Source: Seison nebaliae (lineage: Eukaryota). Taken from it: 64,000 bases of DNA. Shown in pieces: positions 13,091-63,493 of the stretch (position 1 is the first letter of the stretch; the number at the start of each line of letters is the position of its first letter). Below the pieces are notes generated by a model. The model worked only from the letters and a program-made list of their open reading frames with translations, had not been told where the DNA came from and searched no databases. The position numbers and the translations under genes are program-made. The stretch spans positions 1 through 64,000 of the forward strand of contig JALJEE010002126.1 in assembly GCA_023231475.1 (NCBI GenBank), written 5' to 3'.

Positions 13091-13932
13091 ATGAATGATC
13101 GAACAAGAGGCCGAATTTTGTTGAAAGTCGGATTTCTTGGCAATTCCGGGTGAGTATCCCTAAGAGATCATTCTTTAAACAGTTTCATTTCGTTCGATTA
13201 TTCAGAGTTGGAAAAACGGCGATTATCAATCAATTTGTTTTTGGAAGATTTTTAGGTAATTGGCCTCCTACAGTAAATGTCGATTGTTGTGAAGTTACAA
13301 AGATTATAAATGGATTTGAAGTCTTTTTGGAGGTTAGTCTTGTAACGATTTGTTTTAATGATGAATTATTGAATACTCGATGAAGTTATGGGATACAGCG
13401 GGAATGGAAAGATTTTCGAGCTTGATCCGTAATTATCTGCGCTTGATGAACTGGTGTATTCTGGTATGTGATTTGAATGATTGGTATTCTGTAACGGTTT
13501 TCCAATGAATTTGTAGAGTTGAATATAAAAAAATTTCTTCGTTTAAAACAGCAATTACAGGCTTGGAAAGATTTTTTTGAAGATTCTTGTACAAATGCGT
13601 CCTATCAATTTGTAGTTCTGGCGAATAAACATGATAACGTAGTGAATCGGGTTAAGAATAATTTTTTTACCTATTTCAATAAATCTTGTCTTCAGGAAAC
13701 AGTGACTGCAAATCGAACTATACTACAAAAATGGTGTCGAAGTAATGCTATCGTACTATTTGAAACTAGTGCGAAAGAAAACTTTAACATTGATACAGCT
13801 TTCACGTATCTCATGAAAGAATCATGTTCTGACAAAAGGTTATGTCACAAAAAACAAGGTAAACAAACTGGCCGACAATGTTTATTCTGTCGATTGGGGC
13901 TTCAAGATGAATCGGGCGGTTGTTGTAAATGA
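13091..13932 (+). CDS. Divergent Rab7-like small GTPase, 5 exons (13091-13149, 13206-13332, 13386-13496, 13552-13650, 13696-13932), 210 aa
   Basis: GNSGVGKT P-loop, WDTAGMERF, ANKHD, ETSAK and C-terminal GGCCK prenylation motif; the four intron positions match Rab7 at 38498 (exons 2 and 3 are 127 and 111 nt in both). Confidence 0.85.
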
Positions 13933-14177
13933 ATCTTCCAAATTTATCCGTTTTTTTTTCTGTCTCTCTTAAATATACTCTTATACTATACTAAATAGCA
14001 GTTCTTTATTTTCCGTTTTGCCTTGCTTATTTGATCTCTGTCAATTATTATTGTTGAATTTGAAGATCAAATTCTGTTGGCAACTTCCAATTCTGCCAAT
14101 TTTGAAGATCAAAAGTATATTGTGAGATGCCAACCACACTTGTTTATTCGATAATACCCACAGATCTCTTTTTCATC

Positions 14178-14288
14178 CATTTATTATGTCTGTTTATCAT
14201 TTATTTATTATCTGTTTATTATTACCTGTTGTTTCATCTATTTATCATCTGTTTATTATTTATTTATCATCTGTTTATTATATATTTA
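14178..14288. repeat. Low-complexity minisatellite, ~21-nt unit (TTTATCATCTGTTTATTATTT-like)
   Basis: About 5 imperfect tandem copies of the tctgtttatYat core. Confidence 0.6.
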
Positions 14289-15041: not shown

Positions 15042-17559
15042 ATGTCCTTTCAACAATCACCCGACAAATATTCTCATAATGATGATAATGATGGGAATTT
15101 GTTGATTGATACGATAATTGAGGAAGAGGAGAAGAAGATGCGTCAAAGGAAAATTACTCCAAAAGATGATTATCGTCTAAGTGATGAGGAAGAAGTGATG
15201 GAGAAGAATTCGATTGAAAAGAATGAAAATTTCAATTTTACTCCTCATTCCACCACAACGGATGAAGTTTTCCATCAGCTAAATAAACAAGGTCAGCCGC
15301 TTCGACATCATCATCAATTTCAATTAAATAAAATTTTAACAAACAATTCCACATCGACAAATAATAATGAAATTATTATTGATAAAGAAGAGGAGACAGA
15401 GAAGGGAAGATTGTTGTCCGACTCAATCAACCAGAAAGAGGAAAGAGACTTCTTACATAATCTGCGAAGTGATATTCTTAAAGAGAAGAATGATGAAGAA
15501 TTGACAATTAATAAACATGATAATGAGAAGTGTGGAAAGTTGATCGAATTGGAAGAGGAGGAAGAGGGTGAACAACATGAAGTCTTACAAGAGATGGCAA
15601 TTCGAAAGAAATTGAATGAGAGAACTTACATTCCATCAAAAACTGGAATTTTCTCTCAAACTAATAAAGAAATTGGATCGAATGAATTATTAAGAAAGCA
15701 CCATCATGATAATAACATTAATAACGACGATGCTGATGATGATGATGATAATGATTTAAGTGAATTAATTACATCAACTAATCGAACTAAACCATTTGGA
15801 AGTTGGATGAGAAATAAATTTAGAACAGTCATCGGTCAAAGAAAATATGAAGCAATTCCATTGAATGATATTGATGATAATCGAGAGAATATTCATTTAA
15901 GTCATCGTAATTACGACAAGAGAAATGGCCAATCTAATCATTTATTATTAAATGTTAACGATAATGATGACGACGATGACGATGATGAAATTGTGTTGAT
16001 GAATCGTCTCAACTCCTCTTCTACAATTCACAACAATCTTAAAATGACAACAACAACATCAACGACGAATGAAGAGTCATCGAACGCAAATCGATCGACC
16101 GAACGTTTATTTGACGATCCTGAACGTGAGACAAATGAACGATGGTATTCGAGCGCATTACAAGTTTTCATACCGTTCATCATCGCCGGATTAGGTACCG
16201 TTGGTGCTGGTATCGCATTAGATAATTATCAACATCGTCGAATTTTCACTGAAGTGAGTGAAGTTTTCATTTTGGTGCCAGCACTATTGGGATTAAAAGG
16301 TAATCTAGAAATGACTTTAGCTTCCCGATTGTCGACACAAGCCAATCTTGGACGAATGTCAAATCGGAGCGATTGTATCTCTATCATTTATGGGAATATG
16401 TTCTTGACACAATGTCAAGCATTAGTCATCGGATTATTAGCAGCTATTGTTGCCATCTTTCTCGGATGGTTACGTGATCATCAATTTTCGTTTGCTCATT
16501 CACTTCTCCTCATGTCATCGTCGGCAGTAACAGCTTTATTTGCTGCCATCATTCTAGGGAGTATTATGTGTGGAATTATTTATATTTCTTATCGATTGAA
16601 ATTAAATCCTGATAATATCGCCACACCAATTGCAGCATCATTAGGCGATCTCATCACTTTGACAATTCTCACATTAGTAGCATCAACATTTTATAATATT
16701 CTCTCTCCTCGAAGTAAATTTGAAATGATTTCAAATTCAACACTCTCTCTCAACAATCTTACTGATGTCATGAAAGACGTCGATGTACGTCATGTAACGT
16801 CATCAACGACTACTGGTCTCATTGTCTGTTCTTTATCTGTTATTCTTTCAATTTTCTTCATTCCTTTATGGGCATATCTCTCTTATCGGAATAAATATGT
16901 ACAACGCGTTTTATTTGATGGTTGGACACCGGTTCTTTCCGCTATGGTCATCTCTAGTTTAGGCGGTTTAATTCTTGATACGGCCGTCTCTAAATTTCAT
17001 GGTATCGCCGTTTTCCAACCAGTCATCAATGGAGTTGGAGGAAATTTAGCTGCTGTTCAAGCGTCACGTCTCTCCACTAAACTACATCACGAAGCGACTC
17101 ATCAATCAAACGGGGAAACTGTTCAACCGAAAACTAACGTTTGTGTTAATCCTTTCAAATTTTTCTTCTTCAAAAGTTTCATTATTTTTTCTAATAATTA
17201 ATTAAATTATTTCTAATTTTTCAGATGAAGAATCGAAAATGGCTCGACTACTTTTAGCGATGGTAATTCCTGGTCATTTGATTTTCGTCTATCTAATAGC
17301 TTATGTCAAGGCTGGACACACGAGCATTACATTCAAATTTATTTTAACTTATATTTCAGCCGCGCTCATTCAAGTCATTGTACTTCTCTTCTTAGCGCAT
17401 TGCATCGTTTACCTCGTCTGGAATCGTGGTGGTGATCCTGATAATGTTTCCATTCCATATTTGACGGCATTCGGAGATCTAATCGGCACTAGTTTATTAT
17501 CTCTCACATTTCTCATTCTTTTCAGTATCGGTGATGCTGATTATGATGTTGGAGATTAA
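15042..17559 (+). CDS. SLC41A: SLC41 (MgtE-like) Mg2+ transporter, 2 exons (intron 17176-17224), 822 aa with a long low-complexity N-terminus
   Basis: Signature motifs VPALLGLKGNLEMTLASRLSTQAN, NPDNIATPIAASLGDLITL, PVINGVGGNLAAVQASRLST and DPDNVSIPYLTAFGDLIGT. Confidence 0.95.
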
Positions 17560-18169: not shown

Positions 18170-20124
18170 ATGAATTGTGGAATGATTTTCAATTTGAAAA
18201 TTTTCATTCTTCTTTTTCACATATTCTGCTGGTTGGATTGCGCGAAAAATAAAACATCATCGATCAGTATTCGTCGATCGAAATTTGGAAATTCGTTGAA
18301 GAAGATATTGACGAGTGCGACGGAGAACTCCTTGAGATTAGTGGACGGAGTGACTGAATATGAAGGGAATGTGGAAGTTAAATTGTGAAAGTTTTGAAAA
18401 AATGTTTCATTAGATTCCATCTCCAGATATTCCATGATAGTGAATGGCGTTATATTTGTGATGATAATTGGTCGTTCGTTGAAGCGCGAGTAGTTTGTCG
18501 ACATTTGGGATTTGTGGATGCTTTAGCTGCCACCGAATATAATCAATTTAAGAGTGGAGATTCGAGTTCGTTTCACTAAATAATCACATCCTAATTCCTC
18601 TCATTCTAATTCCATCTCTCAGACATCTATTGGTTAGATAATGTGTTATGTAATGGTTATGAACCGTCATTGAATGAATGTCAACATGCTGAATGGGGAA
18701 AGCACGACTGTCAATATAACGAGATGGCGGGTGTTATTTGTAATCCGAAGAAGAGTAGTACAATATTTAATCGAACAGATGAGAAATATGTGGATATCGA
18801 ACAATTGAATAAAGTTTCATTAAATTTCTGTTTTATATTTATCATCAAATCTTTTAAAATTTTATCATAATCATCATAATACAAACCGTTTTTATTAGAT
18901 GCCGTTCGATCAATTGAGTGAGTTATATATTTATGGAGGAACGACAAAGAATGAAGGAGCAGTTCACATCAAATTGAAAAAGAAGGAGAAGGAAATCGCT
19001 CTCATCTGTTCGGATGGATGGTCAATGAAAGAAGCACAAGTCACTTGCAGATCATTAGGAATCGGTTATGGATATTATGCAGTGGTTGTTCGGCCTTTTC
19101 TTTCTCCTTTATTTAAAATAGATATTTAAAAATTTTTCTAATAGACTCAATCATATAACGTACAAACATATCATATGAGTGTGAGTGGTGTTGAATGTAC
19201 AGGATATGAGAAACATTTGAAAGAATGTAAAATCGATAAAGAGATGCATTGTAGTGGGACACATATGATCGCCGGAGTGATTTGTGCGAAAGGTTTCTTC
19301 TATTCAATATTTTCATATAAAATTATACAATTCTCCTTATTTTCAGTATTACCCGATCTAGTACCAGATTTAGAAGTCTTCCGCAAATCTGTACAAATCG
19401 AAGATAAACATATGTATTATCTACAATGTGCGATGGAAGAGAATTGTCTGGCACCAACGGCATATGAAATTCAATTGAGATCGAAAAGTTGAAAATGTTT
19501 CTTTATCTCATTTGAAATCTCCTTCCTAATAGATTGGCATCATCGCAAAAGACGATTATTGAGATTCTCAGGAAGTGTTTGGAATCGAGGAACGTCCAGT
19601 TTCCGTCCATTGGCAGCGAAGAGCGATTGGGAATGGCATAAATGTCATATGTTAATCAATTGTTTTTACTTCAATTTTAAATTTGTTTATTTACTAAAAT
19701 AATTATTGTCTTCAACTAAACATTGGAGATTAGGCATTGGCATAGTATGAATGTATTCGCTGCGTACGATATCATTTATCGAGGAAAAACGATTGCTTTG
19801 GGACACAAAGCATCCTTCTGTTTAGAAGACACGAAATGTGCGAGTGGTGTCGAACGGAGATTCGCATGTGCTAATGGTGGCGATCAAGGAATCGCCATTA
19901 ATTGCACGGACATTTATTTGTATGATATCGATTGTCAATGGATCGATATTACTGATATTCCATCAGGAACGTTCCAATTACGAATGAGAATAAATCCTGA
20001 ATGGAAAGTTGCCGAATTGGATTATAGTAACAATGGAATAATTTGTACAATTCATTATAAGAAATCGATGCAAACTGGATATAAATTAATGCCGAAGAAT
20101 TGCACATACATTCCACTACCGTAA
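18170..20124 (+). CDS. LOXL: Lysyl oxidase-like protein (signal peptide, 2 SRCR domains, LOX catalytic domain), 8 exons, 507 aa
   Basis: SRCR motifs ICDDNW and ICSDGWS; LPDLVPD; LQCAMEENCL; Cu site WHKCHMHWHSM; LTQ residues in HKASFCLED and DIYLYDIDCQWIDITD. Introns 18377-18426, 18566-18622, 18814-18898, 19088-19144, 19293-19346, 19488-19532, 19651-19733. Confidence 0.93.
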
Positions 20125-20370
20125 CGATGGAATTAAAACCATAAGACATTTTCTCATTCTTTCATTCCACTTGATTATTTCTCAGATTAGTATTCGAAAT
20201 AATTTCCACTGGTTCTTTTCCTAAAATTTTTTATGTAAATTGATAGACAACGAACGAATTGAGAGAGATGTGATTGATATTTGGACGATATTTTAATTTA
20301 TTTTCATCATTTTGGCGGAATATGGAAACGTCAAAAATAAAATAACTTAAATAATTTTCCTTTTTTAAAA

Positions 20371-21873
20371 TTAGGAGGCTAATCGACATTGTTCACAATG
20401 TACCATCTGCTCCTGGAATCTTTCAATTTGGAAGCAAGTGTAACTTACATCATATTTCTGAGAAATTATATTTTCGCATTCTCTCAATAATTCCTCGTCA
20501 CTTTTCATATCGTCTTCATCTGATGATGAATTGAATGAGATTAATTCGTAAAAGTAAAGCTAAACCTCGAGCTACATGTGCAGAAATTGCATGACGATCC
20601 ATCGTCAATGACCAGATAGAGAGTGAGTGTACATGACGCACTTGAGGAATGTCCTTCAATAATTTCAGTACATCATCATAAGAGATCTCTAATGGACATC
20701 CTTCCATTAGAACTCGGATGATATCTTTGAGGATTTTTAATGTCGTTATAAGAACCAAAACAGAAAATATGTAGGTCGTAATTGGATCGATAATTTTAAG
20801 TGACGGCTAAAAAATGGGATACATTAATTAGAAGATAAAAAATAATTTTCAAAACTTTATAATAGATGATTAATGCGGCGATGAATACTCCTACACTTTG
20901 AATGACATCCCCAATCAAATGGATAGTCGCCGCTCGAATATTGATATTCTCCTCAACTTGGTTGTCATAATACTCTGAATTACTATCCATAATCACTTTG
21001 GAATCCTCTAATAAATTTTCATCGTTTCTCGTTCCATATCGATTGACAGACGTAAACGTTTCATTATCTAACATTCTTTCCATTTTACCCTTTTTCTCTT
21101 GTTGATATGAGACGGAATAAGCAGAAGCATAATTCATGTTGAGTGAAACTTCTAATGGATTGGCTGTGATTAATGGATTTCTTTCGGAATGTGATCGATG
21201 GAAAGATTGAATTCTTCTCCTATTAGCCACCTCGGCATTTTGGTATGGTTGTTTCGTCTTTTTCTTTGGTTTCTTTTTCCGACTATTCGGACAACACCAC
21301 CAGAAACAATTGAATAACTCGTAATTCAATACGACCATCATTCTAAGAAATGAAAATTTGAAAATTAATTGGAGAGATCACGAAGAACATGATATTGGAA
21401 GCGATGGCAAATCCTGATGTAATAATCATTATATCTGCTTCAATCTCGAATTCTTGATTGATAATTCTCATCGTTGCCAAATAAACGAGAACTCCGGTTA
21501 TTATCCAAATTAGAAAAATACTAAAAAGTGCTCCAATCACCTCTATCGTCAAAGTAGATGAAAAGAGATCGAACGAAATAGATAATAAACCTGTACGATA
21601 ATAACCGAAATTTATCTTTTTTGTTGCTTTCTTCTCACCGTATATAATGGCAACTATTGAAATAATATATCCTAAAACGTCTGTTCCTAAATGTGCAGCA
21701 TCTGTCATTACGGCGACACTATTTGATATTGTTCCACCCACCACCTCGATCGTCATTAATGCCAGACATACAAGGAGAACAATAAATAAACGACGTTTAG
21801 ATTTGGAACGTGAATAATCATCTTCATCATTGATATCATGGCAATGTGGCATCACTGTGTCCGACTGATCCAT
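20371..21873 (-). CDS. SLC30A: Cation diffusion facilitator zinc transporter (ZnT2/3/4/8-like, SLC30), 5 exons, ~437 aa
   Basis: SVAVMTDAAHLGTD, FGYYRTEVIGA, NINIRAATIHLIGDVIQSVGV, IDPITT, VLMEGCP, VHSLSIWSLT. Introns 21543-21590, 21343-21388, 20807-20855, 20520-20565; the start codon is uncertain. Confidence 0.92.
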
Positions 21874-23986: not shown

Positions 23987-26900
23987 CTAATGAATTAAAA
24001 TATTTTCTCTCTCATAATTCGACAAAGTATATGGTAAATTGATGTTGATGAAATGCTCTTCCAACAAATCCATGAATCGATGCAACGTATCGATATAACT
24101 CGATTGAATCTGATGGAATTGTTGATGGATTATATAGAAATTGATCATTTCTCTCAATTGGCAAATGATATTGTTCGGATATTGAGATAGCCACGTGCCA
24201 ATACCCAACGTGAACACCAACAAATCTTTATTATCTCCATTCTTATTCGATCGATTAATGAAAACATCTGAATGGAACGATAAGGAAAAAATTCATAAAA
24301 ATAATTCCGTTTAAACGAAAATGAATGTAACTTGAATTTTTATGATGGATATATGATTTTAAATGTAACGTAATGATTGAGAAGGCGATAGAAGAAATAT
24401 GTGGAATGTATCCTAATCGAGCATAGATGGTTGTGAGGACATTCGTCTCTCCAATGTTGTCCAAATAATCTCCAATCTCAACAGCAATCGCATTGTCGTT
24501 GTAGAAGAGTTGTTGCTTATTCATTAACTTTTCTTTCCCATTGACCGATATCTCTGACTTCTCCAACATTTCCATTATCATCGATCTAAAAAAATTTCCA
24601 TCAAAAAATAAAGTTTAATGGAAATGAAACTTATTGAAATTTTTTATCGTTCGAGTGATATTCGGATTAGATGTTACGGCAACTTTCCTTAACTGATGGG
24701 CGAATTGTAAACGAATCAATTGAACTTGTCCGATATGTGTGAGATGTTGGAGGATGTCGAAGAGAATTAATCGGAAATTTATATGAAGAATTTGTAGTGA
24801 TTTATTAATTTTCTCTTGACATTCGTCGATCACGTCGAATTTAATCGATATCATATCCACATTTTTCAACGTGGGTAATATTGGATGGAAAGTATTTGAG
24901 AATTTCGAACGGATCACACACTTCTCACATCGATTGAGTGCTTCAATGAAATTCTTTGCGAAATTCATTTTGTTCTTGTCGACAACTTTCTGTTGATTTA
25001 ATTGAACACTGTGAGGATTGGACGATTGAATCGAATCGTCATTCAATTGTAAATAATCGCTTAATATAGCGGCAATATGACGAAGTTGGAAAGTGCATTT
25101 CCTTCCTAAAATATCATCTAACGATCGTATACCGAAGGAAGAAATGGCGGAATGTAATTGATCGAAATGTTTCGAAATACAAGAACGATCCTTCAACTTC
25201 AAATTATACCAGGCGTTCTGTTGAGGTAGATAGACGTTGAATTTGGGATTGGTACATGAAATCAATTCATTCAACAACTTATCTAAACATGTATCATCCG
25301 AATCAGAAGTTGATGGAATTGGTAGTCCGATTTTCTGATATGAACTGATGTCCAATGAATTGTTGATAACAGAAGATGAATATTTCCTGAACGATTGTTC
25401 CCCTAAGAATGAGAGAAGTTTGGAGAATTCATCATTGAATAATTGAAGACCACTAATATTGATATAATCTTGGACGTATTCGAATACTTGACGAACGGCA
25501 TTAATTTCCGTAGATAATTCAACGAGAACCATCGAATTTAATTGATATGATTTCTTCGGAAATTTAATTAATCGATTTAAAATTTCATATAAACGCAATA
25601 ATAATTCTTTACGAATACCATCCTCTAATAATTTCTTCGGATCTAATTGTTCCACTCCGACCACCGTACTTTTCATGTTGAGAATTCCTTCAGTTAACAA
25701 AGAAATTCGATTGGTCTCTTGAGAGATTTTCTGTCGAACAATTAATTGAGAATAATTATCGATATGTTCCTTCTCCAATCTCGTCGGTAATTCGATCATG
25801 GACTTCAGTGATAAATTGATGATCATTTTGAGACGATCGAAAATCTTTCCTGGAATTATTTGAAGAATCTCCTTCACTAATTTCACTAATTCGTTTGTGT
25901 AGTGATTGGAGACACTCCAAAGATCGGGACTATTCGATTGACAGATACGGACGAGTGGCTGATCTAATGCGATGGATAATTTGAGGAATAAAGCTCGTAA
26001 TTTTATGACGAAAGTTGTATCGGTGGCGATCGATTGTTGTAGAGAAGTGACATATTTCTCCATTAATCGCCAAGCATATGACATATCAGCGACACATTGA
26101 AGATGAACGATCGAATCTTCTTTCAAATTCAACAAACGACTCATTTTCTTTAATTGATGTCGAGTGTCTTCAAGAAATTGTTTCACTTGTAAATTCGTTT
26201 CTAAATCATGATACGACATCACTTCATCTAATGCATCGATCAATGCGGAAATATTTCGTCCAGTTACCGTTCGATTAATTCGAGAAAGTTGGTGGATTCG
26301 TTCAGACATCTTACGGAACCACTGCTCCAAATGTGCATTCGGCGCAATTCGAGTAAGTGCTTTCTTACCTGAAAACACATCTGCCAATTCCACCAGTCTT
26401 TCCTCACATTCCTTCTGAAGATGTTCCCATTCGTTTGACGATTTGGTGAGAAGACGATTAAATAATTCACCAAACCGATTCTCTAATTCGGCTGTGTTTA
26501 ATAAGAATTCTAATAATTTATTGGGATTTGAAAATTGTCCAATTTTCATGAGACTTTCACGAATTATTCGACATTTCTTATTATTCTCCATGAGACATGT
26601 CGAAGGATTTGTATGGAGAATAATCCATCGGATCGTTACATTACAGTCACGTAACAATCGAATTATTTGTGACGGTTTATTCAATGCCACTTCCTCATTC
26701 ATTACTCCTTCTTTCAAATATTGTTTTATTGAAACTGATAATTCATTCAATTTATCATGTTGTTCTTTTGATTTCAATTCAATACTATTCATATCAATAT
26801 TACGATTCAATGCTGAATAAGCAGCACGGAAATCATGCCACAAATCAAAGAGATTTATGGTCAATCCCATAAAAAGAGAGATCGTCCAATTTCCCAAGAA

Positions 26901-28311
26901 GAATCGTGTCACGATTTGATTCATCTCTTGAGTTTTATCATGTAAATAAGTCGAACTGAAGAAAAGAATCGCTACTAAAAGTACCGATTGACTAGCTAAA
27001 GCAGTCGATCGATATAAAGCCTCGGGATATTTCCCCAAATTATTATAAAGGTCATCCGTTTGTAATCGGCCAACAAGTAAGGATATTAATCGTTTTTTTA
27101 TTGGTAATCGTCTAAAAATAGAATTTTAAAGGAAATTTAAATTTAAATGAAATTCTGAAATTAACTGAAAATATGCTTCAGGATAACGATGAGGTTTCTT
27201 CACATATTTCCCCATTTCCGAATAGCCTGTACTTCTCAACAATTTCATTACCTCATCCAAATTAGAAGTTAGATTCCGTTTCTGAGAACTATAACGGAAA
27301 TAAGCGACGATCAATCTCTCACGGACAATTCCATCAATTCTCCAATCACACACCAGGAGAATGATCCCATAATAAGCAACCGCTTCAATGAACAGTTGCT
27401 TCGCATTATTGTCCAGTAGTAATGATTCCAACGTATATTGAATATGGAGACCATTCTCCACATCTTCAACAAATCTTCGAAATCATTACAAAATTAATTT
27501 TAAGGAAAAGAAGATGAACTGAGTCAAATCTCTGTAATATTTATAAATACTTTCAAACACTTCGTAAAATCTTACAAGTAATGTAGAATATTCTTGACGT
27601 AATTCATCATCTTTCTTTTGTAATTCCTTCAACGATTAAATGAAACAAAACGTTTAATCAAAAATCCCATTTTTAACATTAAAAAATCTTTTTTAAAATC
27701 GCAATTTTAAATTTACTAATTTCAATAAATCGTTTTTCAATCAAATTCTTTAAAAGAAAATTTCAAAATTCGCAAAATAAAATAATCTGTTTTTTTCTAT
27801 TTTTTTTTCTGGATTTAAATCTGATTTATGTCCAGAACACTCTTTTTAATTCATTTAAATTTATTTGTCTAAATTTAATTATTTTTCTAATTGGGAAAAA
27901 ACTGGAAATTTTACAGAAGAATTCCCAAAATTATCCTGCAATTCTAATACTGTAATTTTTTATTTTTCGTAATAGATATTTCAATTTTTTGTAGCCGAAC
28001 GTCAAATAAGAGCATATGAGCAGAAAGAGCAGAAAGAAAGAAAAGAGACAAACTGCACTTTTCCACAAAGTATCATCGAAAAGAACTTTTCGTTTCTCTT
28101 CGAAATAAGTGAAATCGATTATGAGATCTCGATAATATTGCCGTACAGATTCGTCGTTGTTGGGAGAGAAATGTTTAAACGGTTTTGGAATATGTTCCGA
28201 CAATCGTAACAATTCCGTTATGATGGCATTAGCCCTTGCCACTAATTTGACAAGAATCTGACAACAAATATTATCTTGGAAGGAATGAGTCTGATCATTC
28301 ATGTTATCCAT
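23987..28311 (-). CDS. WASHC5: Strumpellin (WASH complex subunit 5), 6 exons, ~1230 aa
   Basis: NAIITELLRLSEHIP, GIVRERLIVAYFRYS, YPEAYF, RSTALASQ, KLRALFLKL, DPKKLLEDGIRKEL, EYVQDYINISGL. Introns 27627-28053, 27475-27519, 27112-27165, 24586-24630, 24268-24331; the start is one of 28317/28311/28302. Confidence 0.93.
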
Positions 28312-28441
28312 TATCATCCAATCGATTCGAACTATCAAATTAGAATTGTATACGTTTTCTAGAACAAACAAATTTTATGAGAAAATAAATCGACAATATA
28401 TTTTCTGCTTCGTCATTTATTCTCCCTCTTCCCATTAACAA

Positions 28442-36900: not shown

Positions 36901-37042
36901 AGCAAGAATGATCTTGGAGAAACATATCACTAAACCAGGTGTACATGCCCCCTTATCCTCCGATATTTACGGACCGATGTTGCGATATTTGAAGGAGGCG
37001 GGATTGCGATGGACTGAACGAGTCGTCCAAACTCCCAAATAA
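33902..37042 (+). CDS. AASS: Alpha-aminoadipic semialdehyde synthase (LKR/SDH bifunctional, mitochondrial), 6 exons, 945 aa
   Basis: WERRAPLSP, FFSHTIKAQEAN, AICDISADPGGSIEF, SIDNMPTQLP, LLLGAGFVS, NEVGVDPGIDHM, YKFSWSPRG, AMAKTVGLPTAIA. Introns 35198-35242, 35303-35355, 35522-35631, 35762-35806, 35918-35967. Confidence 0.96.
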
Positions 37043-46243: not shown

Positions 46244-47602
46244 ATGATAATGAATCTCATTTCCATCTTCATCCTTCATCACATTACAAGCATGACATCA
46301 GCTTTCCGCCGTTTTAATGCCAACAATTATTTATTTAATCGAATCCCATCCACATCATCCATCAACTCGATAGGTTCGATCTTCTCTCAAAATAAAATTA
46401 AAGAAATTTTTTATCTTCGGCAGATTGTGGAGAGTCGGCCATTCTTAACGAGAGGAAAGGACGCGTCCTATTTGGAATCGATTCGATTCCTCATTCCTTT
46501 CCTTGGATTGTACAAATTCGCAGTCTCATCCGAACTCCCCAACAATCGTTTATGATCACCGTTTGTGGTGGTACATTAATCGATAATCAACATATTCTTA
46601 CAGCAGCACATTGTGTGGAGAAGTCCTTCAATTTCTTAATAAAACTTTAATTATGCAATTCATTTATAGATTAACATAAAACTATTAATATGATCGTACT
46701 TAATTAGAATTGACTAATTAGATATTTTACTAATTCTCAATATATTATTTTATTTTAAATTTTCACTTTTCTAATCCTAATTCTTTCCGTACCATTTGAC
46801 GACTAAACGTGTCGATGTGAATTAGGAAAGGAAGATAACTAAATATTTCATATCAATTCATCTCTAGACATCCAATTTATGAGGTGGAACCGATTGATAT
46901 CCTTTTAGGTTCCCATTATTCCAATAATATTCACTATCGACAACAATCTAAAAATATCGTTTATCGGCGTATTCTAGCAATTTATAAAGTTTGCTCATAT
47001 AAACTTTCTCCATTTTCAAATTTTTTCATCTCCTTTTCAGTTTCCTCTGTGGCATATTGAAAATAACATCGAACATGATATCGCAATTATTCGAATAGGA
47101 AGAATAAGAAATTTTAATGATATCGTCCGACCAATTTGTATTCCGAATACAATCCGATTCCGATTAAATGAGTCAGTAGTAGCAGCTGGATGGGGTTTTA
47201 CTCGTTCTCCATCCATCATGCTCAAAACTTATAAACGATATGGTATGAATAGTTTGATGAAACCAATCGCTTTACAACGCATATCTCTACCAATCCGCAA
47301 ATGGAGCATGTGCAAACAATTACCACTTCATTCTACTCATATATGTGCAGGTACAATCAATTCATCTGTATGTTCCGTTTAGTTCAATTTTCTTTCTTCA
47401 ATTTCATCAATTTTATTATCAAACCATCAATTAGGGTGACAGTGGTGGACCACTAATGAAATATGATGTATCCATCAAAAAATGGATTCTCATCGGTGTC
47501 GTTTCCAATGGAGATCCCACTTGTTCCAAACCAAGTTTATTCATTAATGTCTCCATGTATTATTGGTGGATCGGATTGATTAATGAATACGACACTTCAT
47601 GA
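46244..47602 (+). CDS. Secreted S1A serine protease (chymotrypsin/elastase-like pocket), 5 exons, 317 aa; mostly missed by the ORF track
   Basis: Activation site R|VLFG, FPWIV, CGGTLI, LTAAHC, HDIAII, PICIP, AGWG, VCSGDSGGPL. Introns 46374-46423, 46623-46867, 46989-47040, 47377-47434. Confidence 0.92.
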
Positions 47603-49278: not shown

Positions 49279-50408
49279 ATGAAGTCGTTGTGTTTCCTAC
49301 TCGCTCTAATTCTATTCTCCTCCATCGTCTATGGCGAGGACGTGAAGGATGGTTGTATGGATCGTTGTCCCGAAGAGAACGAGGGATGTCGAATGGGTTG
49401 CATTAACTTGCGAACGGAAAACTTGAACAAAGAGTCCAATTCCCTTCTGAAGATCAGTAACTGTGTTGAAATCTGTCGAAAGAATTTCGAAGGAAAGAAT
49501 ATGGAAGAATGTAGTAAATCATGTCACTTCGTCGAACCATCGACTGATGATGTTTCGGAGAAAGAGAAAATTGTTCCCGAGAAAAAAATCGTTAATAATT
49601 TTTTCATTAATTAATTTTAATTAATCTTTAAATTTAATTTGAAATGAAGATTCAAACGGAGAAATTAACAATTTCCTCATTCCCTTTCAAACTCATCAAT
49701 TCTTTATTGTCTGGAAATATCGAAGATACGATCGAGAGTCAATTAAACGAAGGAATGAAGAATATGGATATGATGATGAAAGAGAGTCCTCATCACATGA
49801 TGATGGGTCCACATCATATGATGTTCGCTAATATGCATCATATACCACGACATATGATGATTATGGTTAATGGTCGTCGAATTCCTCCTATGTCTGAAGA
49901 GAAACCGAAAATTATTGATTTGACTGCTCATCGTCAACCATTGGTACCGTTCCATCATTCATTCAAAACGAGAGAAATGGAACCTCGTCATTATCATGAA
50001 CGTTTCGCCAGTTCTATCCATAATGCTTTCTATCATTTCTGGAATTGTATGACTCAACGAATTTCGATTCCACGTTGGATCGCTCTCTCTACTCTCGGAC
50101 TTGTCATGTGTGTCTTCATTTGGGCTTTCTGTGGATTATGGGTCGTCTCACGTCATATTCGACGTCGAATTGCATTCCATCGTGAAATGGAGAATCGAGT
50201 CGCTCTCCAACGTTCAGTACAAACGATGAATAAGACCATCGATTTAGATATGCCAAAATTTGACAAATTACCCGAATATCAAGATGCAGTGAAAAATGGA
50301 GAAGATGAAGAAATAATTTCCAATGAGACATCTGATGTTTCCATGGAAACTGAACCGACAAACATCAATGACAATGACGAAACTAACGAACTTATCAACA
50401 AAGTTTAA
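49279..50408 (+). CDS. TMEM59: TMEM59/BSMAP-family type I membrane protein, 2 exons (intron 49591-49649), 356 aa
   Basis: Signal peptide; four CxxxC motifs (CMDRC, CRMGC, CVEIC, CSKSC); the juxtamembrane/TM segment FWNCMTQRISIPRWIALSTLGLVMCVFIWAFC resembles TMEM59L. Confidence 0.7.
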
Positions 50409-53021: not shown

Positions 53022-53025
<4 letters not shown>

Positions 53026-53210
53026 AAGAAAGATATTTATGAGTGAAATATACGAGAAATAGAGAGATAAATATTGTTGTAAAGAAGAGGAAGAAGTGAA
53101 TAGTTGGAGGAATTTCCATTCCGAACTGAATCGATTGGAGAATTATCTTGAAAATAATTTTGAATTTTATGAATTGATAAATATCAAATCGATCGAACTT
53201 CTTCTCAGAC

Positions 53211-56177
53211 ATGTCATCGTCAGCATTTGTACCGATGAATTTCGTTTGTGATCAATTGATCAATGCGTTGGAGAATGATCTCTCTAACAATATTTCATGG
53301 GATGATGAGACGATTGATCTTGATGCCGTTTTGAATGAAGTTGATGATTTGGTGACTGAGAAACGATCTTTCTTGACACGAGAAGAAACTCGTAAACTCT
53401 CCAAACTTCATTTTGATGATTCGATTTTTATGGAGAGCAAACCGAAATTACACGTAAGATTTACGGAGAAACGGAAAAAAGTGGAAGTGGAAGACGATGA
53501 TGATTATTTTAATGAGAACGATTTACCATCAAAAGAGTACGATTATGAGAAATATCGATATGAGAGAATGAAAAAGAAGAAGAATAAGAAGAGATTTAGT
53601 AAAAGTAAAAAAGCTGAATCGACTTGGACTGAATCGAAATTATTCGATTTCGAACGAGACGATGCTAATGAAGAAGATGAAGACGCTCGAGTTTCCATCG
53701 GACCCGAATATCAGGTGGATGTGGAAGAATGGACAATTGACGAAGAAACTAATGATGAATTAAGGAAATTGTGTGTTGATCGTGAAGATGATTGTTTATG
53801 GAATAATCGATTATATGAAGAGACATGTGACACAATTTTACCAGATCATCAATCTGATAAATTGAATGAATTCCGCACAAACATTTCTACGAGACTCATT
53901 TCTGATGAGAACGAATTGGAAATTATTGAAAATTATTCAAATAAATTACTCAATTCATCACTAAATGCTCAATTAGTGAATTCAACGCCGATAATTAGCG
54001 ATTTCGAAAACCGTCCACCCAGATATGAAAACGGTTTATTATCCGACGATGAATTGATTGAGGAGAAGATTTTGAATGGGAAAGACATGCGATTGAATGA
54101 GACGATGATTAAATATTCCTCATTGATCTGTTTGAGTAAAGAGGACATGTTATTCTTCCTTCAAATATTCGATTATGACGAAACGGATTTTTATGAATTT
54201 TTGAAACGATTTCATGAAATCGAACGATTAACAATTGATCGACATCAAACAATTTCATTGTTAACTGATGATTGGAGTTATGATAGTCAGGAATTGTTCG
54301 AATTAGCTTATGCGACATATGAGAAAGATTTCGAACAAATTGCAACATTATTTCCAGATAAATCATTTCAATCCGTCGTTCGAATGTATTATTCGAGAGA
54401 TTTGAAATATGAATATGTCTCCGAAATGGATATTCGTGCAATCGATGTACGTTGTAAAACGTTATTAGAATTCTTATTGAATCCATTTCAACACGTACCA
54501 ACATCATTGAGAGGAATGAAATTATTATCTCATGCTCTTCATTTATATCGATCAGTCATTATGGAATATCGGAAGGAACATGAAGAGAAATTTATTAATG
54601 AAAAACATGGTCGTTATAATCATGGGAGACGACATGTTCTCAAACATCATCGTGATAAAAAACAAAGAATTCTCTCAGATAATTTAAATCGAGATAGATG
54701 TAATACCGAATTAGATATTCAACGAATTTTGGAAGATGATGAAAATAAATTTGAAATTGATGAAATTCCTGAATCATTGAAAATTGATGAGAATGTAGAA
54801 AGACATTTGAATGAGACTCTGAAAGAGATGGAAGATAATACGGATTATTCACATCTCATTAAAAACCGTCATCAACGGAAACCGGGAAAATTTAAAAGTT
54901 TCTTAAAATATGTTCGATCGTCGAAACGATCGATTTTGGTGGAGAAGTTTTATGAGAAAATACGAAATCAAAAATTTATTTATTTCAATCACTTTTATCT
55001 CCAATCTCAACAAATCATTTCGATGGCACTCATTTTCTTCAGTTTCTTCTATTGTCTCGAAAACGATTGGAAGGAGATTATGGGACAAATTCAGAGTTTT
55101 CTCGAACCAGAATTCCTTCATAGTTTCCGTTCGGGGAAAGATTTGAACGAAGTTTTCTTATTATTTGATGGAATTCTCGGACTGTATCATAATAAATGGA
55201 AATCATTGAAAAATTGTAAATTCTCAATGAATTACATTTCGATGATTCATCTCTATTATATTTTCAATTCGACCGATTTCCAATTATTGATGTATTCGAC
55301 GATATTTCATCCGTTGAAACATTTGAATAGATTTCGAGCGAATTTTATCAAATTCAACAAAAAATCAAAATCTACATCAAATTTATCTTTATCGACGATT
55401 AGTTCGATGACGAATGAACAATCGATACCATCGTCATCCTCATCGTTGTGTGTATCGTCTCCATCGTCACCATCGTCATCGGGAAAGCTGGTGAATAATC
55501 AGGAATTGTTTGTTGATCATCGAGTTCAATTGTTTCATCGTTCTCATAATAATAAGAATTTAAATTTCATGTTAAGTGAATGGCGAATTCAATTGTTGAT
55601 GTTAATACGACGGAAAGCGGTGACAGATAAAAATTTTCAATATCTCCTCAAATGGAAATTGTCGACATTGAAATTGATGAAAGTTTATTGGCAGAAATTA
55701 ATAGGAGTCAACGAGAGAATTACTCATAAATTGAACGAACGTTATATGAATGAAGATCAATTTTTTCTTCTCTATTATCAATATTATCCACTCTTTTATT
55801 GTTATCAATCAGACGAGGAAGTTTTTATCACTCTAATCCAAAATGTTCTTCAATCGGATTTGGATGAAATGAAAGAAGTTCATTCATCCTCTCAAATGGA
55901 CAAGAATGAATATCCTCATTTATATTTCTTATTGATTGTTGAAGGATTGATTATGTGGAATGAAATATTTTCATCGTCATATTTCTCTATGAATGTCACG
56001 AAGAAATATCATCATATTAATCAAAAGAATCATCAAAATATTTTATCAATTCCTGATAGTAATTCAGATAATTATTCGGAAATCGATTTTGAAAATCTTT
56101 CAAAAAATAAAGAAAAAAATGACGAACATAATATTGATGAAATTCTCAATCTTTATCGTGACAATAATAATATTAAT

Positions 56178-56233
<56 letters not shown>

Positions 56234-59200
56234 TTGTGGAGGGAATTTCGAGAGATCAGTGAATGAATTGAAACAAGAAATTCGTCAATTGCGCAAAGAT
56301 GTTCAGAAGGAGATCGATGCAAATATTTCATTCGCTAACAAAGATCTGATTAGTCGGAAGGAATTGGAGGAATACAAAATGGAGAAAAATGGACAGATAA
56401 TCAATAATGGAATGATTAATGGAATCATCAAAATGGAACCAGAGGAAGTGAAAGTAGAAGATGAAGAATGGACGTTATTGACGTTACATGATATCGTTCG
56501 AAGTATCGGGAAAGAATTTCTCTGCGAATCATTCCAATTGTTTCTAGTGACGAGAAAGGATTATGTTAACGGTAAATATCCGGGTGAATTAGAAACTATC
56601 AAATTCAATTTAATGACGTCATTAGAATCGTCGGATTTTATCAACGCACCCATTACACTCAATTGTCAACAATTCACACAAATCACTCGACAATATGAAC
56701 AATCTGTTACACGCGATATGGAACATCTTTTCTTCTTCAACAACGACGAGGAATGGGAACAACGATTTGTTGAGATCAGTCAACAAATCGATAATTTATC
56801 GAAATATGTGGAAATGATGAATGGTGATGAAGAGAATAAAGAGAATGGGAAATCTGATAATAATAATGGAAATATTTTGGGAGGGATTAAAATGAAAGAA
56901 AATGATAAGAAGAAATTGATGGAATTGAGTGTTGAAGGAATAACAGATATGATAAAAATGAGTGACAACAATTACATGAGAAAGACACCAGAACAAATGG
57001 ATTATATTCAATCAGAAATTATGAAAATTGATTTTAAATTACAAACAATTTCCTCTCAACTCGAATTCAGACGTCAAATGCCTAATGAGAATTATGGCGA
57101 TCGAATTCGTCGTTATATTCAAACGAAGAAGAAAAAATCGAAAATTTCTACGTCTTTCTCTTCACATTCCTCTTGTTTCTCGTCATGTGAATCGATTCTT
57201 CCACATTTCTCTGATTCCACTATCTACTCAACTAGTGATGGAGCATTCGATGATTATGAGAGTGATACTGAATTTTTTCAACGACGACGACAAACTGATT
57301 CATCCGATAATGATTCATCTAAAGACGATGAAGATGAACATGAAAATGATGAAGAGAATGAGAATGAAGACGAAGAAATTGATGATGATGATTCCAGATT
57401 TGATGGTGGTGAAGCAGATGATGAAGAAGAAGAAGATGTATCAAAAGAGAACTTAGAGAAAGATGATGATGATGATAATGATAATGATGATGATGATGAT
57501 AGATGGTTTACAAGTAATAATCGAAATGGACGGAAACGACGAATTTCTGATACGGATTTGAATGGAAAACCGAATTTCTTTTTAGAAAAGAAATTGAAAG
57601 AAAATGAAGAAAAGATGGAAGAGGAGGGAGAAGATGGAGATGAAACGATAAAATCTCTTGATGATAATGATGATGATAATATATCGGAAGAAACAGTTTT
57701 GAAAAAGAAGAAAATCCGACCAGAATATCCAGATGAAACGAAAGAATTTGAAGAGTTGAAAGAACAATTAGTTTCATATCATCTCGATCAACAAGATCGT
57801 CGACAACCAAGTTTAACGGAGAAAGACATTAATTTATTACTTCAATCGTCATTTTTATCAATTCCATTTGAATATGATTCGTTGAAATCGAATAAATTAT
57901 CTGAAGATAAATCGGATGAGAATAAATCGATTGAATTGAATGAATCATCTCTAACTGTGAAATCATCAGAATTATCATTTCCATTCGGATTTTTAGAAGG
58001 AATCGATTCGAGTGGTCGTCGTGAAGATTTGGAGAAATTAGTAAAAAATTTTGATTATAAAAAAAATGAGTTTGGTGAATTATCTGATACGGATACTGTG
58101 TCAGATGGATCTGATACAGCAAATAATATTTCATTATCTCTCATTGAACAAAGTTCATTGAACGAACCATTTGAAACATTATTTATGAGTCATTTGAATG
58201 GAAAACGATTTTATTCGGATCAGAAAATTTTAGAATATTTATTAAGTCATCATAATGTTCCTCATGAGATTGGAACGACAACAACCGCCACAGTCACCAC
58301 TTCATCATTAGACGTTTCACTTGAGATGGCGAAAGATTATCAAAATTTATTATTATCAGAAAAAGGTTTTGATGAATTTCCATCAAACAGTTTATTTGAT
58401 GATGATTCAATAGATGAGGAAATGCCACCATCATTATTGACATTAGAACAATTTGAACAATTGTTCAATATTTCCAATAACATTAATAATAACAACAATG
58501 TAATTGATGAGGAGACGGTAATGAATATTTTGAATAATTTGACGGAATATGATATGAATGTTCTTTATGATATTTTGCCAATGGAGAATATTATGAATTT
58601 ATTTAATGGAAATGATGATAATGATGATGATGATAATGATAATGATGATGATGGGGGAATAAACGAGAAAAGTATTCGTGAAAAAGAATGTTTACAACTT
58701 CTTCCGACTGATTTGAAATTTGGATCAAGATCGAGACGAATGTGTCCAGGAAAGACGAAAGCTAATATTCTTCAACCATTACGTGAAATTCATGGATCTG
58801 CTTCCATTTTCGATCGTTATCTTTTCGAACATTCTAAACGTGTATTTGATGAAGCAGCAGCAGCAGATGTAACAGAAGATGAAATGATGATTGATTTTGA
58901 AGAAGAGAAAGAATTATTTGAAGATAAAGAAGTGAATGAATCGATTGCGAAGAAATTATGTCAGATATGTAAACGACCCGTCCCAATTATTTATCATCCA
59001 GTTTCTTTCATTCGAAGTGTAGTTCATAAACGAGCGAAATCCATTTCTAATATTCCAATCAATGATAATAATCGATTTAATACTCGACCACAACGAACGA
59101 GACGTCCAATAATTCCACATACACCCACTGAACCGATTAGAACATCGACACGTCCAAAACGACGACGACGACGACGTCAAAAACGACGACAACAACAACA

Positions 59201-62200
59201 ACAAATCATTCCTAATAGAAAGACGACGAGAACGAGAAGAAAAGGATTTTTGAAAAAAGGGAAAAATTCAACAAAGAATAGAACCGTCGCCTCTACCAGA
59301 TCACAATCTGAAATGACAAATAGAAGGAAAGTGAATGAATTGTCATTGAAAAGACGGCGTTTAAATTCTTATTCAAAAAACACTTCAGAAGATGATGAAT
59401 CAATAGAGAAAGAAGAAGCGAAAGGAAGAAATCGTAAACGACGGAAATCGACGGAAGAGAAAGGGATGAAGAAACGACAACAAATCGGAAGAAGAGTCAG
59501 AAGACAATTGGACTCGCCTCAATCAACAATCTGGTCACCAAAAATTAATGAAGATGAAGAAGAATATTCAGAAGGTAAAATTAAAGAACCATCACGACGG
59601 AATATGAGATTGGTGAATAAAGACGATCGACCAATACGACGGAATTCTAATCGAAGATCACGTTGGAATTTGAAAACGATAAATGATGAAGAGAATCGAT
59701 GTCGATTACGTCCACGATCAACTCGACAAGTTTGTTATTCGGAGACATTTAATGAAAAAGATTCTGATTCAGAAATCGATTATCGGAATGTGGATCAATT
59801 GGACGGTTATGCGACATTAGGTCGACAACGACGACGTAAAAATTATAGACGTGTAGGACAAAAATTATCATCATCGAAAAATCAATCGAAAGAGGAATGG
59901 ACTGAAGAGAAAAAAGTGAGATTGAAAGGAGGAAAGAAGAAATTCTCTCAATTCGAAAAATCTTTGGCACTTGGTGCGAAAAAAGAAGAATTGGATGATC
60001 CGAATATTTATCTTCGATGTATTCGAAGTCGATCATTAATACCAAGTGGTGCTAGTATTGGTACTGCTCAATTATTGAATAATTCGAAAATGGTAGAATC
60101 GTTTAATGTCCGTTATATGGAATCGATTAGAGGATCACGTGATTTTGATGGATATTATGAGAGACAATGTCATTTGATTCATCAAATATTCCCATTTGAA
60201 AGAGAAGGAATTATTTTAAAAAAGAGATTGAAAGAATATTGTGATGAAGAGAAGAAGAGAGATAAATTCAATAAAATCTTCCTCTTTCCAATTCGACAAT
60301 TTAATAAGAAATTAAATAAATCAACGAATAAATCGATGAAAAGATCTATTGATGATATTATTTTGAATTATCAATATGAATTGAAATTATCTTCATGTCA
60401 ATTACCGAAACATTTATTCAATTGTATCGATGAATCGATTTTGTTATCAGATGATGATATGGAAGTGAAAGTGAAAACAGATAATCGAAAAGTTGATAAA
60501 AGAAAGAAATCTTTCATCAAACCAGAAGAAGATGATTCGAGATCATTCCTTCTTATGGACGTTCCATTTGATCGAAAAAAAAATAATTTACCATTCATTC
60601 AAGTCAATGAGAAAGAGAAGAATTTGGAATTAATTGGTCATTTCACTCATACGAATTCGAAAGAATTAGATAAAACTCTTTATTACAAATCGGTTTTAAT
60701 GGAAAAAAAATTGATGGAATTGCCAATTAAACACCATCGACAATATCGAACAAATGAATTGTTTTATAATTCTGATGATCAATTGAAGAATGAGAAGAAA
60801 AAGGTGCAGGAACGACGGAGACGATTCAAAGAATTTCTGATTGAAAATAAGAAATTTTTAGAAGAGAATTCTAAAAAGAAAAATTTGGAAATATCGTTGG
60901 ATATGAAGATGAATGAGGAGATGAATTTACCCATAAATGGAAAAATTGAAGAAAATCAAAAAATGGAAAAGAGAAAGAAGAAGAAGATGGAAATGAAGAA
61001 TTCATTCCAATTGAAAAGTGGAAAATATGAAATTCGTCGACGATTCCAATTGAAACAACGAGATAGTGAAGAAGAGAAGAGAAGAAAGAAAAGAATAATG
61101 AAGAATAAATTAGAGAAAAAGAAAGAATTATTTGAGGAGAAGAAGAAGATGATGATGATAATGAATGAAGATTATGTTCCCTGTCAACCAACAGATTTCC
61201 GTTCATTCGAACTTGATCTATTTGGAAGAGATATGAAAATAAATCGAAATTTATTTCAATTACCATCATCATCGAAAGATGAAGGAAATGATGATAATAA
61301 GAATGAAATTAAAGATTCATTTTATGACGTAGTTCCATTCAACAAAGAATTCATCTTAAGAAAATGGAAAGATGAAGATTTGGGAGGTAAACAAAAAAAA
61401 TTACCGGTAGAATTGACGATATGGAAAGAAGAATTGGAAAAAATGAATAAAAGGAAAATGAAGAAGAAGAAGAAGATGGATAAAAGAGAATGGAAATCAC
61501 AAATCACACATCAAGATCTAAATAAGATGATGGGACTGAATCGTAGAGAATATGATGAAGTCACTCAATTCGAAATGACACCATATCAAGGATTGATTTG
61601 TCATCGATGTCTAACGAAAAAGAGAAATTGGAGAACCGTCAACAAATTAATGGAATGTCGTTCTCGTTCGAATGATGAGAAGGAGAATGAGGAATTGATG
61701 GATAAGATGAATATGGAATCAGACGATTTTAATGATATTGGACATGAATGGGTGAAATTGTGTAAACCGTCACGATGGGAGAAATTGCCAGTATCGTTTA
61801 GTACAAATTTTTTTTTTTTTTTTTTAAAATTTCCATTTTTTCTTTTAGAGAAATGAATAAATCAGAATATGATTCTAATCGTGATGTGATGATGGTGGAT
61901 TTGGATGATGATTGGTTACCATCTTATCAAATAGAAGTAGAAAATTTCCGTCATTATCGACGACCATTTCCCACAACAACAATCCCGTCGATCGACGTTG
62001 ATAAATCAAAAACGTTTTTTTTTTTTAATTTTTTTTTTTCAAATTAATTAACTTTTGTTTTGTTGAAGAATTGTGACGAGGGAATTACCATATAGTCGAT
62101 TTATTAGAGAGAGTTATCAAAAGAATTTCTCCTGTCTGTTGTATCAGCAGAAGTTGGTGGAAGATATTCGACGAGATTATTTATCGAAATTTCTTCATGA

Positions 62201-63493
62201 CATTCTCATAAGTGCAATGGAAGATGATGGAGATGATGATATCGGTATCGATGATGAAAATTTGAATGAAGGAATGGTGAATGATGCATTGAGAGCTGAC
62301 CCCAAATTAATGAATGTTCTTTTAACCAATGACATGTTATGTGCATATTCACCTGATCGAATGGAAGAGACGAAAAGAAGAATGAATGCTCAACATTTCA
62401 AGAGATTCTCAGAGAATTTCATTGATCGATCGATGATGTATGAGGGATCGAATATTTCCGGATTGGTTATATACAAATTTTATAATATTAATTATTATTA
62501 TATATTTATCTTTTTTTCCAATAGATTCAAACGATTCGCGATCATCCAAATCGTAAACGATTTTGGTCGACGATTGATATTATTTTCGATATTTTCTCTC
62601 TTCAAATGCATGGAATGGATGAAGAAGCATTTACTCATATCAACAAATATTCCGATGAAGATTTAGTGGATGAGGAAAGAATGATTTATAATAAGGAATT
62701 ACCATATTATCCATCATACGACGAATCGGATATTGACGATAATTTTTATGATTATCAAATTAGAAATCAGTCATTAGACACTGATTTCGGTGATGATCTT
62801 GATGACGATTTAGATGACGATATAGATAATGATGATGATATGTCCAATGAGAATTCTTATTTCAATCGAATGAAAGGAAGAGAATATCTGATGGAAAATG
62901 GACTCAATTCAAATAAAACGACAACTCGTTTAATGGAAGAAGAATATTCGGATAATTCTGATAATTTTAATTGTCGTCGATCTACTCGATCCACAACAAC
63001 AACAACAACAACAACAACAACGATGATAGAAGATGAAGAAGAAGAAGAAGAAGAAGAAAATGATGATGATGATGAAGAAGAAGAAGAAGAAGAAGAAGAA
63101 GAAGAAGAAGAAGAAGAAGAAGAAGAAAGAATAATTGAAAATCTATCAAACAATTTCAATGAGGACGATGATGCTGAAGAATATTTCCAGAATGAGATAA
63201 TTGGAAATGATGTGGAGAACAGTGAACGATTATCTAATGATGATTTAATGAATGGAATAGAGAATGATGAAGATGATGATGGTCATACAAGTGATGGTAG
63301 TGATTCGGAGAATGATTCAGAGAAGAGTATCGATTCACTTAATACAACGAATACTCAATCATCAGTCAAATCATTGACACGAGAAGAATTGGAAGAACTG
63401 AAAAGAAATCGATTCGTCAAATTCATGAATTCGTGTCCACTCCGCAAATTCATCTTCCAACTCATCCAACAAACCTTAATGGATGACGAATAA
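53211..63493 (+). CDS. Giant ELM2-SANT (CoREST/RCOR-like) nuclear protein, 4 exons (introns 61796-61848, 62014-62068, 62466-62524), ~3371 aa
   Basis: ELM2 start RVSIGPEYQVDV; SANT DDWSYDSQELFELAYATYEKDFEQIATLFPDKSFQSVVRMYY; coiled segment VNELKQEIRQLRKDVQKE; 8.6-kb open first exon; the spliced model totals 10116 nt in frame. Confidence 0.7.
56182..56231 (+). repeat. Coding (AAT)n repeat giving poly-Asn
   Basis: Pure AAT run in frame inside the 53211 ORF. Confidence 0.9.
62993..63127 (+). repeat. Coding (ACA)n, (GAT)n and (GAA)n repeats giving poly-Thr/Asp/Glu
   Basis: Direct reading, last exon of the ELM2-SANT gene. Confidence 0.9.

Follow-up and report, generated by a model that had tools for sequence, protein, structure and literature searches.

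Introduction

How freely can an animal alter the way in which its introns begin? Since a single U1 small nuclear RNA (snRNA) has to suit thousands of introns, animal 5' splice sites, or donors, are regarded as fixed near GURAG. The question is raised by contig JALJEE010002126.1 of Seison nebaliae, an epizoic seisonid rotifer (Seisonidea, Rotifera) with a compact genome, described as 44-Mb in size and 32% in GC (PMC8351084). In the first 64 kb of this contig (the window, from which all Seison counts are taken), an earlier note had claimed that nearly every intron begins with GTT and none with GTA, as a genome-wide rule, that donor positions +4 to +6 are relaxed, and that U1 or U6 snRNA or their protein readers have been altered. 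The gene models used here were made by hand from three-frame translations and then fixed by script, and they span positions 13091-63493. They comprise 12 spliced genes, two of them on the - strand, with 47 GT-AG introns, plus five intronless genes. The introns range from 40 to 606 nucleotides (nt) with a median of 52 nt, occur at a density of ~1.4 per kb of coding sequence, and consist of 49% T and 31% A. As judged from these donors, the splicing machinery of Seison has likely changed in its reading of intron starts.

The third intron position

The rebuilt models reproduced exactly the donor counts of the earlier note, namely 44 GTT, two GTC (42338 and 46623), one GTG (13150), and no GTA across 12 genes and both strands, as well as its count of 11 GTT donors in 44 with G at +5. 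The share of T at +3 (44/47, 95% interval 0.82-0.99) does not merely match the background T content and lies above every background tried (P 2e-8 or lower). The probability of at least 44 in 47 is 5e-11 against the T content of introns (0.49), 2e-8 against the GTT share among GTs within introns (0.57), and 1e-15 when the GTT share of the window (0.38) is taken. GTA is absent despite the abundance of A in the introns (P 3e-8). Moreover, the preference is for U and not simply for a pyrimidine, as C occupies +3 in 2/46 donors, where the base composition of the introns would give 9.9 (P 0.001).

The only donor with a purine at +3 lies at 13150..13157 on the + strand, with CGG before the boundary and GTGAGTAT after it. 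With +3 left aside, no other of the 47 donors matches the canonical U1 5' end as well: it scores 9.5/10, the next best scores 8, and the mean is 5.3. This single case suggests that donors with a purine at +3 are tolerated if full U1 complementarity compensates. With a match to the standard U1 end at each of its ten other positions, the donor also suggests, as one case, that the rest of the U1 end is intact.

By the criteria of the major (U2-type) class, all 47 introns have GT-AG ends and just 1/47 has a purine at +3. Retention of the introns would break the open reading frame (ORF) in 44/47. The acceptors are TAG (27), CAG (14), and AAG (6), with T-rich sequence upstream, and a branch-point consensus, which was looked for in the Seison introns, did not stand out. 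The AAG acceptors lie at 13385, 27627, 27475, 31737, 49649, and 62068, and the same acceptor occurs in 4/70 introns of the bdelloid-like loci described below. Minor (U12-type) introns carry the rigid donor motif RTATCCTT. They are ruled out here by the lack of A at +3 and by the presence of 27 distinct donor hexamers among the 47.

Recovery of junctions without a donor preference

A spliced aligner was written that requires only GT or GC...AG and uses profiles built from non-Seison homologues, and it was applied to four genes. All 22 modelled junctions were recovered (AASS 5/5, LOXL 7/7, WASHC5 5/5, and PSMD3 5/5), and 21 of them begin with GTT and one with GTC (P 7e-5 against a share of 0.57). 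When the aligner was restricted to GTA or GTG donors, scores dropped by 200-290 units per gene (2309 to 2030, 941 to 649, 1955 to 1752, and 646 to 417). Four additional gaps called by the aligner, two in the long exon of WASHC5 and two in low-complexity inserts of PSMD3 (GTC, GTG, GTG, and GTC), were dropped because the public proteins P0203 and P0323 read through them.

The 22 junctions agree with four annotated public proteins. The AASS and PSMD3 models are identical to P0001 and P0323, respectively, and the LOXL and WASHC5 models are identical to P0121 and P0203 save for the start Met. P0001, P0121, and P0203, each matched by an exon query at 100% identity, bear the species name Seison nebaliae. 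In the zinc transporter gene, the first intron (48 nt) is free of stops, and a 16-residue gap relative to ZnT8 places its GTT donor. In addition, exons 2 and 3 of the Rab7-type gene match positions 10-51 and 52-87 of the Pfam Ras domain, which are contiguous across intron 2. A scan of the modelled exons for hidden in-frame introns returned 1316 candidates, among which one, at 56158 in the large ORF (GTG..GAG), scored like a typical intron; the remaining candidates score at most 6.3, in the lower tail of real introns.

Comparison with bdelloid-like introns

Nine metagenome loci (L001-L009) were retrieved with an alignment of WASHC5 from two named bdelloids. Their identity is 67-91% with the bdelloid proteins, 32-39% with Seison, and 42-59% with other lophotrochozoans. 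The label bdelloid-like is thus one of similarity, and seven of the nine loci were used, L003 and L008 being near-duplicates of L001 and L007. With the same aligner, the 70 introns of these loci, which come from one gene and are not independent across loci, begin with GTA (60), GTT (9), or GTC (1), and have a median length of 55 nt and a T content of 46%. A purine at +3 is therefore found in 60/70 bdelloid-like donors (86% GTA) compared with 1/47 in Seison. Counted by intron position, 16/18 are mostly A and 2/18 mostly T (P 2e-10 versus Seison). A GTT called at residue 551 of L002 is probably in the wrong place, and it is included in the 70 introns but not in the 18 positions. Bdelloid-like donors are often a bare GTAAAA after G at -1.

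Because the bdelloid-like introns, equally short and T-rich, keep GTA, intron size and T-richness are not the cause of the Seison pattern. Seison WASHC5 has five introns, of which the first four share residue and phase with bdelloid-like introns, and at these four positions the bdelloid-like donors are GTA in 19/19 cases, whereas those of Seison are GTT. Old Seison donors were therefore converted in place and not newly gained. The comparison with sister taxa for which the earlier note had called thus places the shift in the Seison lineage and shows it to be non-compositional. An origin of the introns from introners, that is, by recent gain, is likewise contradicted by the four of five WASHC5 positions and phases that are shared. 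WASHC5 has 17-18 introns in the bdelloid-like loci versus 5 in Seison, which indicates that either Seison lost introns strongly or bdelloids gained them.

Positions other than +3

On the exon side of the 47 donors, the canonical register persists, with A at -2 in 25 (16 expected) and G at -1 in 17 (8.8 expected), where the other bases at -1 are A (19), T (7), and C (4). The intron side shows T18 A16 C11 G2 at +4, A19 G12 T10 C6 at +5, and T25 A12 G7 C3 at +6. G at +5 is enriched (12/47, the intron background being 6.8%; P 5e-5), and T at +5 is depleted (P 1e-4). Bdelloid-like donors show A39 and G26 at +5 (n=70). Their +5 and +6 positions are also weak, and this weakness probably predates Seison. 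The preference for A at +4 has been lost in Seison (16/47 versus 45/70, P 0.002). The trade-off between G at -1 and G at +5 is also gone, with an odds ratio of 3.5 (P 0.09) compared with 0.04 in the bdelloid-like loci, whose introns are non-independent. Among GTT donors, those of the bdelloid-like loci are mostly rescued by G at +5 (7/9), whereas those of Seison are not (11/44). Judged by this comparison, the traits specific to Seison are the change from A to U at +3 and the losses of the +4A preference and of the -1G/+5G trade-off. The proposed relaxation of +4 to +6 stands for +4, where the preference for A is lost; it does not stand for the rest, as +5 still favours G and avoids T and the weak +5 and +6 are common to bdelloids.

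Known donor systems

Metazoan donors have been described as two types, NN//GURAG and AG//GUNNN, that are reflected in the -1G/+5G trade-off (PMC11732430, PMC11347140). Seison resembles this scheme in its GT-AG ends, its enrichment of A at -2 and G at -1, and its residual +5G. It differs in that only 1/47 donors are GURAG and 9/47 AG//, while 37/47 belong to neither class and the trade-off is missing. Bdelloid-like donors fall into neither class in 47/70 cases, yet keep GTA and the trade-off.

The closest precedent for the Seison donors is Entamoeba, in which GUUUGU(U) donors (88-90% GUUUGU) are described together with a co-evolved U1 (AACAAAC, changed at +3 and +4) and a normal U6 ACAGA box; in Mastigamoeba, U1 is ACGUAC (10.1101/2022.06.08.495308). 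Both Entamoeba and Seison (44/47) show near-universal +3U in GT-AG introns, and the Entamoeba case indicates that the U6 ACAGA box need not change. In contrast, Entamoeba, a protist, has few introns and a rigid donor hexamer, whereas Seison is an animal with many introns that fixes only +3, leaves +4 at background, carries GTTTGT in 2/47 donors, and has a U1 change that is only predicted.

Atypical GUU donors in human cells are also handled by the major spliceosome, but are reported as rare (all validated non-canonical registers together make up ~1-2% of sites) and need a shifted core downstream (PMC4856993); this core, G at +6 followed by T at +7, occurs in 2/47 Seison donors. Altered splice signals to which the spliceosome of an animal has adapted are also known from Fritillaria borealis, for which a new intron class escaping GT/AG, paralogues of U2AF, and changed N6-methyladenosine (m6A) are described (PMC13326754). 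Seison, on the other hand, keeps GT-AG ends and has its ancestral introns altered at +3. The available full-text literature on Seison, Pomphorhynchus, Adineta/Brachionus, and rotifers, which mostly excludes subscription papers, yielded no report of the Seison pattern, and splicing terms had no match in the two supplements of the Seison genome paper (PMC8351084). Co-evolution of donors and U1 is a known type of change that is apparently unreported in an animal.

Possible mechanisms

What has been observed is the pattern of the donors, its contrast with the bdelloid-like loci, and the intron positions common to both; all that follows on U1, U6, and proteins is inferred. Across the 44 GTT sites, the duplex with a canonical U1 has an energy of -2.3 kcal/mol, and putting A at +3 would bring it to -4.0 kcal/mol. 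An unchanged U1 would thus bind +3A better and GTA is nevertheless absent, which argues that the reader has changed. Moreover, a preference for U and not for pyrimidines in general fits an A partner better than G44 of U6, which pairs with C at least as well. A genome-wide re-tuning of the major spliceosome in this animal is somewhat favoured, in which essentially all ancestral introns went from GUA to GUU with +4 freed, the donors being read by a changed U1 or by a new protein contact. The particular form of change predicted in U1, from U to A at position 6 opposite +3 (ACUAAC for ACUUAC), is given an even chance. The major spliceosome would still cleave GU-AG introns, and the predicted ACUAAC end would pair weakly with -1/-2, GU, +3U, and at times +5G. 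Short-intron definition across T-rich, G-poor introns of 40-60 nt may assist this weak pairing, and U6 could take +3U as a G44-U wobble, as in Entamoeba, where the ACAGA box is unchanged. The switch of old donors from GTA to GTT would have gone singly, site after site, without their being replaced. Alternatively, within the same re-tuning, a three-letter GUU donor may be read through a novel contact with a protein, while pairing to U1 has largely been given up. The earlier claim of altered U1, U6, or protein readers holds in so far as a change of machinery is the most economical inference, and not in so far as it would identify which part changed.

Several points weigh against the predicted U1 change. 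The duplex with A at position 6 does not penalise +3A (-3.05 at real sites versus -3.12 with +3A), all energies being small. ACUAAC predicts a purine at +4 and U at +6, neither of which is above background, and for the normal U1 register the fit of the tail from +4 to +8 reaches no more than z 1.1. The register test and the duplex energies do not separate the mechanisms. A scan of the 64-kb window for U1/U6/U5-like core motifs found no U1 or full U6 match, and an Rfam search of the window gave 0 matches. Most lineages with atypical donors, among them Thecamonas, Micromonas, 69 Saccharomycotina, and Giardia, are described as retaining a standard U1 (10.1101/2022.06.08.495308), and the adaptation reported for Fritillaria went through snRNA methylation and U2AF paralogues (PMC13326754). 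The evidence comes from one window with junctions from sequence models, and some of these junctions have competitors. Near the modelled donors lie 36 in-frame decoy GTs, including 8 GTA. In the divergent Rab-family gene every modelled donor wins at a gap penalty of 5, but a GTA alternative at 13491 (for donor 13497) wins at a penalty of 3 and another at 13639 (for donor 13651) at a penalty of 8. Matches in the PDB do not fix junctions 3 and 4 of this gene or junction 4 of the protease gene. In addition, the donor at 46623 may be, in place of GTC, a GTG a few bases upstream with a different acceptor.

These competitors, together with the T-richness of the introns, are what speaks for the view that no machinery has changed and that the pattern reflects T-rich drift, a local window effect, or models biased to GTT. 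This view is largely refuted and is the least credible of those considered: the donor-blind junctions and the cost of forcing GTA/GTG contradict it, bdelloid-like introns of similar T content keep GTA, the pattern spans 12 unrelated genes on both strands, and GTT still accounts for 36/47 when all unanchored ambiguous junctions are scored as non-GTT, or as purine. The GTT observation is accordingly confirmed as real and robust, apart from the strict exclusion of GTA. The models contain none in 47, but two or three junctions may begin otherwise, the two Rab-like ones having in-frame GTA alternatives. Similarly, the proposed genome-wide rule holds in all 12 genes and rests on one 64-kb window. 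It is very unlikely that U6 changed instead, for example with A for G44 in its ACAGA box, so that +3U would be paired directly. Such a change would account equally well for a U-specific +3, and an ACAAA variant scores 3.11 versus 2.68 for ACAGA on Seison donors. However, Entamoeba arrived at +3U with ACAGA intact. The ACAGA box adjoins the catalytic core and is highly conserved, which also counts against this explanation.

Quite unlikely, too, is a standard U1 that binds in a bulged (+2/+3) or +1-shifted register, with +3U paired to A7 of U1 as at rare human sites. The +4 to +9 tail gives z 3.2 in the +1 register versus z 1.1 in the normal one, +5 is purine-biased, G at +6 occurs in 7/47 (P 0.04), A at +7 is low (P 0.02), and such registers have been demonstrated in human cells (PMC4856993). 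However, the bdelloid-like GTA control reaches z 3.9 in the +1 register, so the z test does not discriminate. The shifted core is nearly lacking, +4 has no purine enrichment, and it is left unexplained why GTA is excluded although a standard U1 has the stronger binding to it. Less readily set aside, even though still doubtful, is a spliceosome with standard snRNAs in which +3U is set by proteins or snRNA modification (U1C, LUC7, PRP8, SNRNP27K, or loss of U6 m6A), U1 pairing is nearly dispensable given how short the introns are, and U6 G44 wobbles with U. The two donor traits lost in Seison, +4A and the -1G/+5G trade-off, have been tied to U6 m6A, SNRNP27K, and LUC7 (PMC11347140, PMC11732430). 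Purines at +3 are described as contacting U6 G44 just weakly, a standard U1 is the commoner reported outcome across other lineages, and ~36% of BUSCO Metazoa genes are reported missing in Seison (PMC8351084). Against this, pairing with G44 should favour +3C too, which is depleted, and loss of U6 m6A is described as shifting donors to +4U and AG//GU (PMC11347140), whereas +4U here is 18/47, below background, and AG// is 9/47.

Gene content of the window

The spliced genes are listed in Table 1. The gene at 40792..42945 is called PSMD3-type from its sequence, its homologues carrying no name, and the AAA-ATPase-like gene is presumably RAD17-like. The 606-nt intron contains T-rich units of ~30 nt in tandem at 31300-31550, and the large gene at the end of the window begins with a single 8.6-kb coding exon (53211-61795, 2861 aa) without a Pfam match.

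Table 1. Spliced genes of the Seison window and the starts of their introns.
Gene	Position	Strand	Introns	Remarks
Divergent Rab-family	13091..13932	+	13150-13205 (GTG); 13333-13385, 13497-13551, 13651-13695 (GTT)	
MgtE/SLC41-type transporter	15042..17559	+	17176-17224 (GTT)	
Lysyl oxidase-like (LOXL)	18170..20124	+	7 GTT: 18377, 18566, 18814, 19088, 19293, 19488, 19651	
SLC30/ZnT zinc transporter	20371..21873	-	4 GTT: 21590, 21388, 20855, 20565	
WASHC5 (strumpellin)	23987..28317	-	5 GTT: 28053, 27519, 27165, 24630, 24331	
AAA-ATPase-like	30370..32479	+	4 GTT: 30753, 31132, 31916, 32289	Weak Pfam matches only; junctions frame-based only
AASS	33902..37042	+	5 GTT: 35198, 35303, 35522, 35762, 35918	
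Rab7-type	38498..39299	+	4 GTT: 38554, 38721, 38878, 39027	
PSMD3-type	40792..42945	+	GTT: 41485, 41685, 41934, 42082; GTC: 42338	
Trypsin-family protease	46244..47602	+	GTT: 46374, 46989, 47377; GTC: 46623	GTC intron 245 nt, less certain
Gene without Pfam match in exon 1	49279..50408	+	49591-49649 (GTT)	Frame-based only
Large gene (3371 aa), exon 1 without Pfam match	53211..63493	+	GTT: 61796, 62014, 62466	Frame-based only

The + strand carries 15/17 genes of the window (P 0.002), two gene pairs are spaced by 105-111 nt, and several gene starts have an acceptor-like YAG close upstream. These three features may reflect operons with spliced-leader trans-splicing. Two intronless genes are candidates for horizontal transfer. 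One, at 32591-32917, is a 108-aa ORF without a Pfam match, in which we presume a resemblance to a short bacterial protein of NIF3/YqfO type. The other, at 37910-38392 immediately upstream of Rab7, is a PCC gene (Plants and Prokaryotes Conserved, PF03479). A degenerate second copy of the last exon and 3' untranslated region of Rab7 lies ~870-900 nt downstream (39950-40280). Inverted repeats of ~330 nt at 3114-3445 and 10425-10750 (86-98% in segments) bracket 7 kb without long ORFs, and possibly represent a decayed terminal-inverted-repeat element.

Significance

The published cases of donor and U1 co-evolution are from amoebae, and one model proposed for them requires prior massive intron loss (10.1101/2022.06.08.495308). 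Seison, by comparison, remains rich in introns and yet seems to have changed +3 throughout its old ones, where relatives hold the ancestral state at the same positions. With Seison and its relatives, the passage of a spliceosome and its substrates through a compatibility valley can be tested directly, as can the question of which reads +3: U1, U6, or proteins. In addition, Seison genes may escape gene finders that were trained on other animals, possibly inflating the gene loss reported for this rotifer. If true, the re-tuning would be the first metazoan case of donor and U1 co-evolution, reached through site-by-site conversion in an intron-rich genome.

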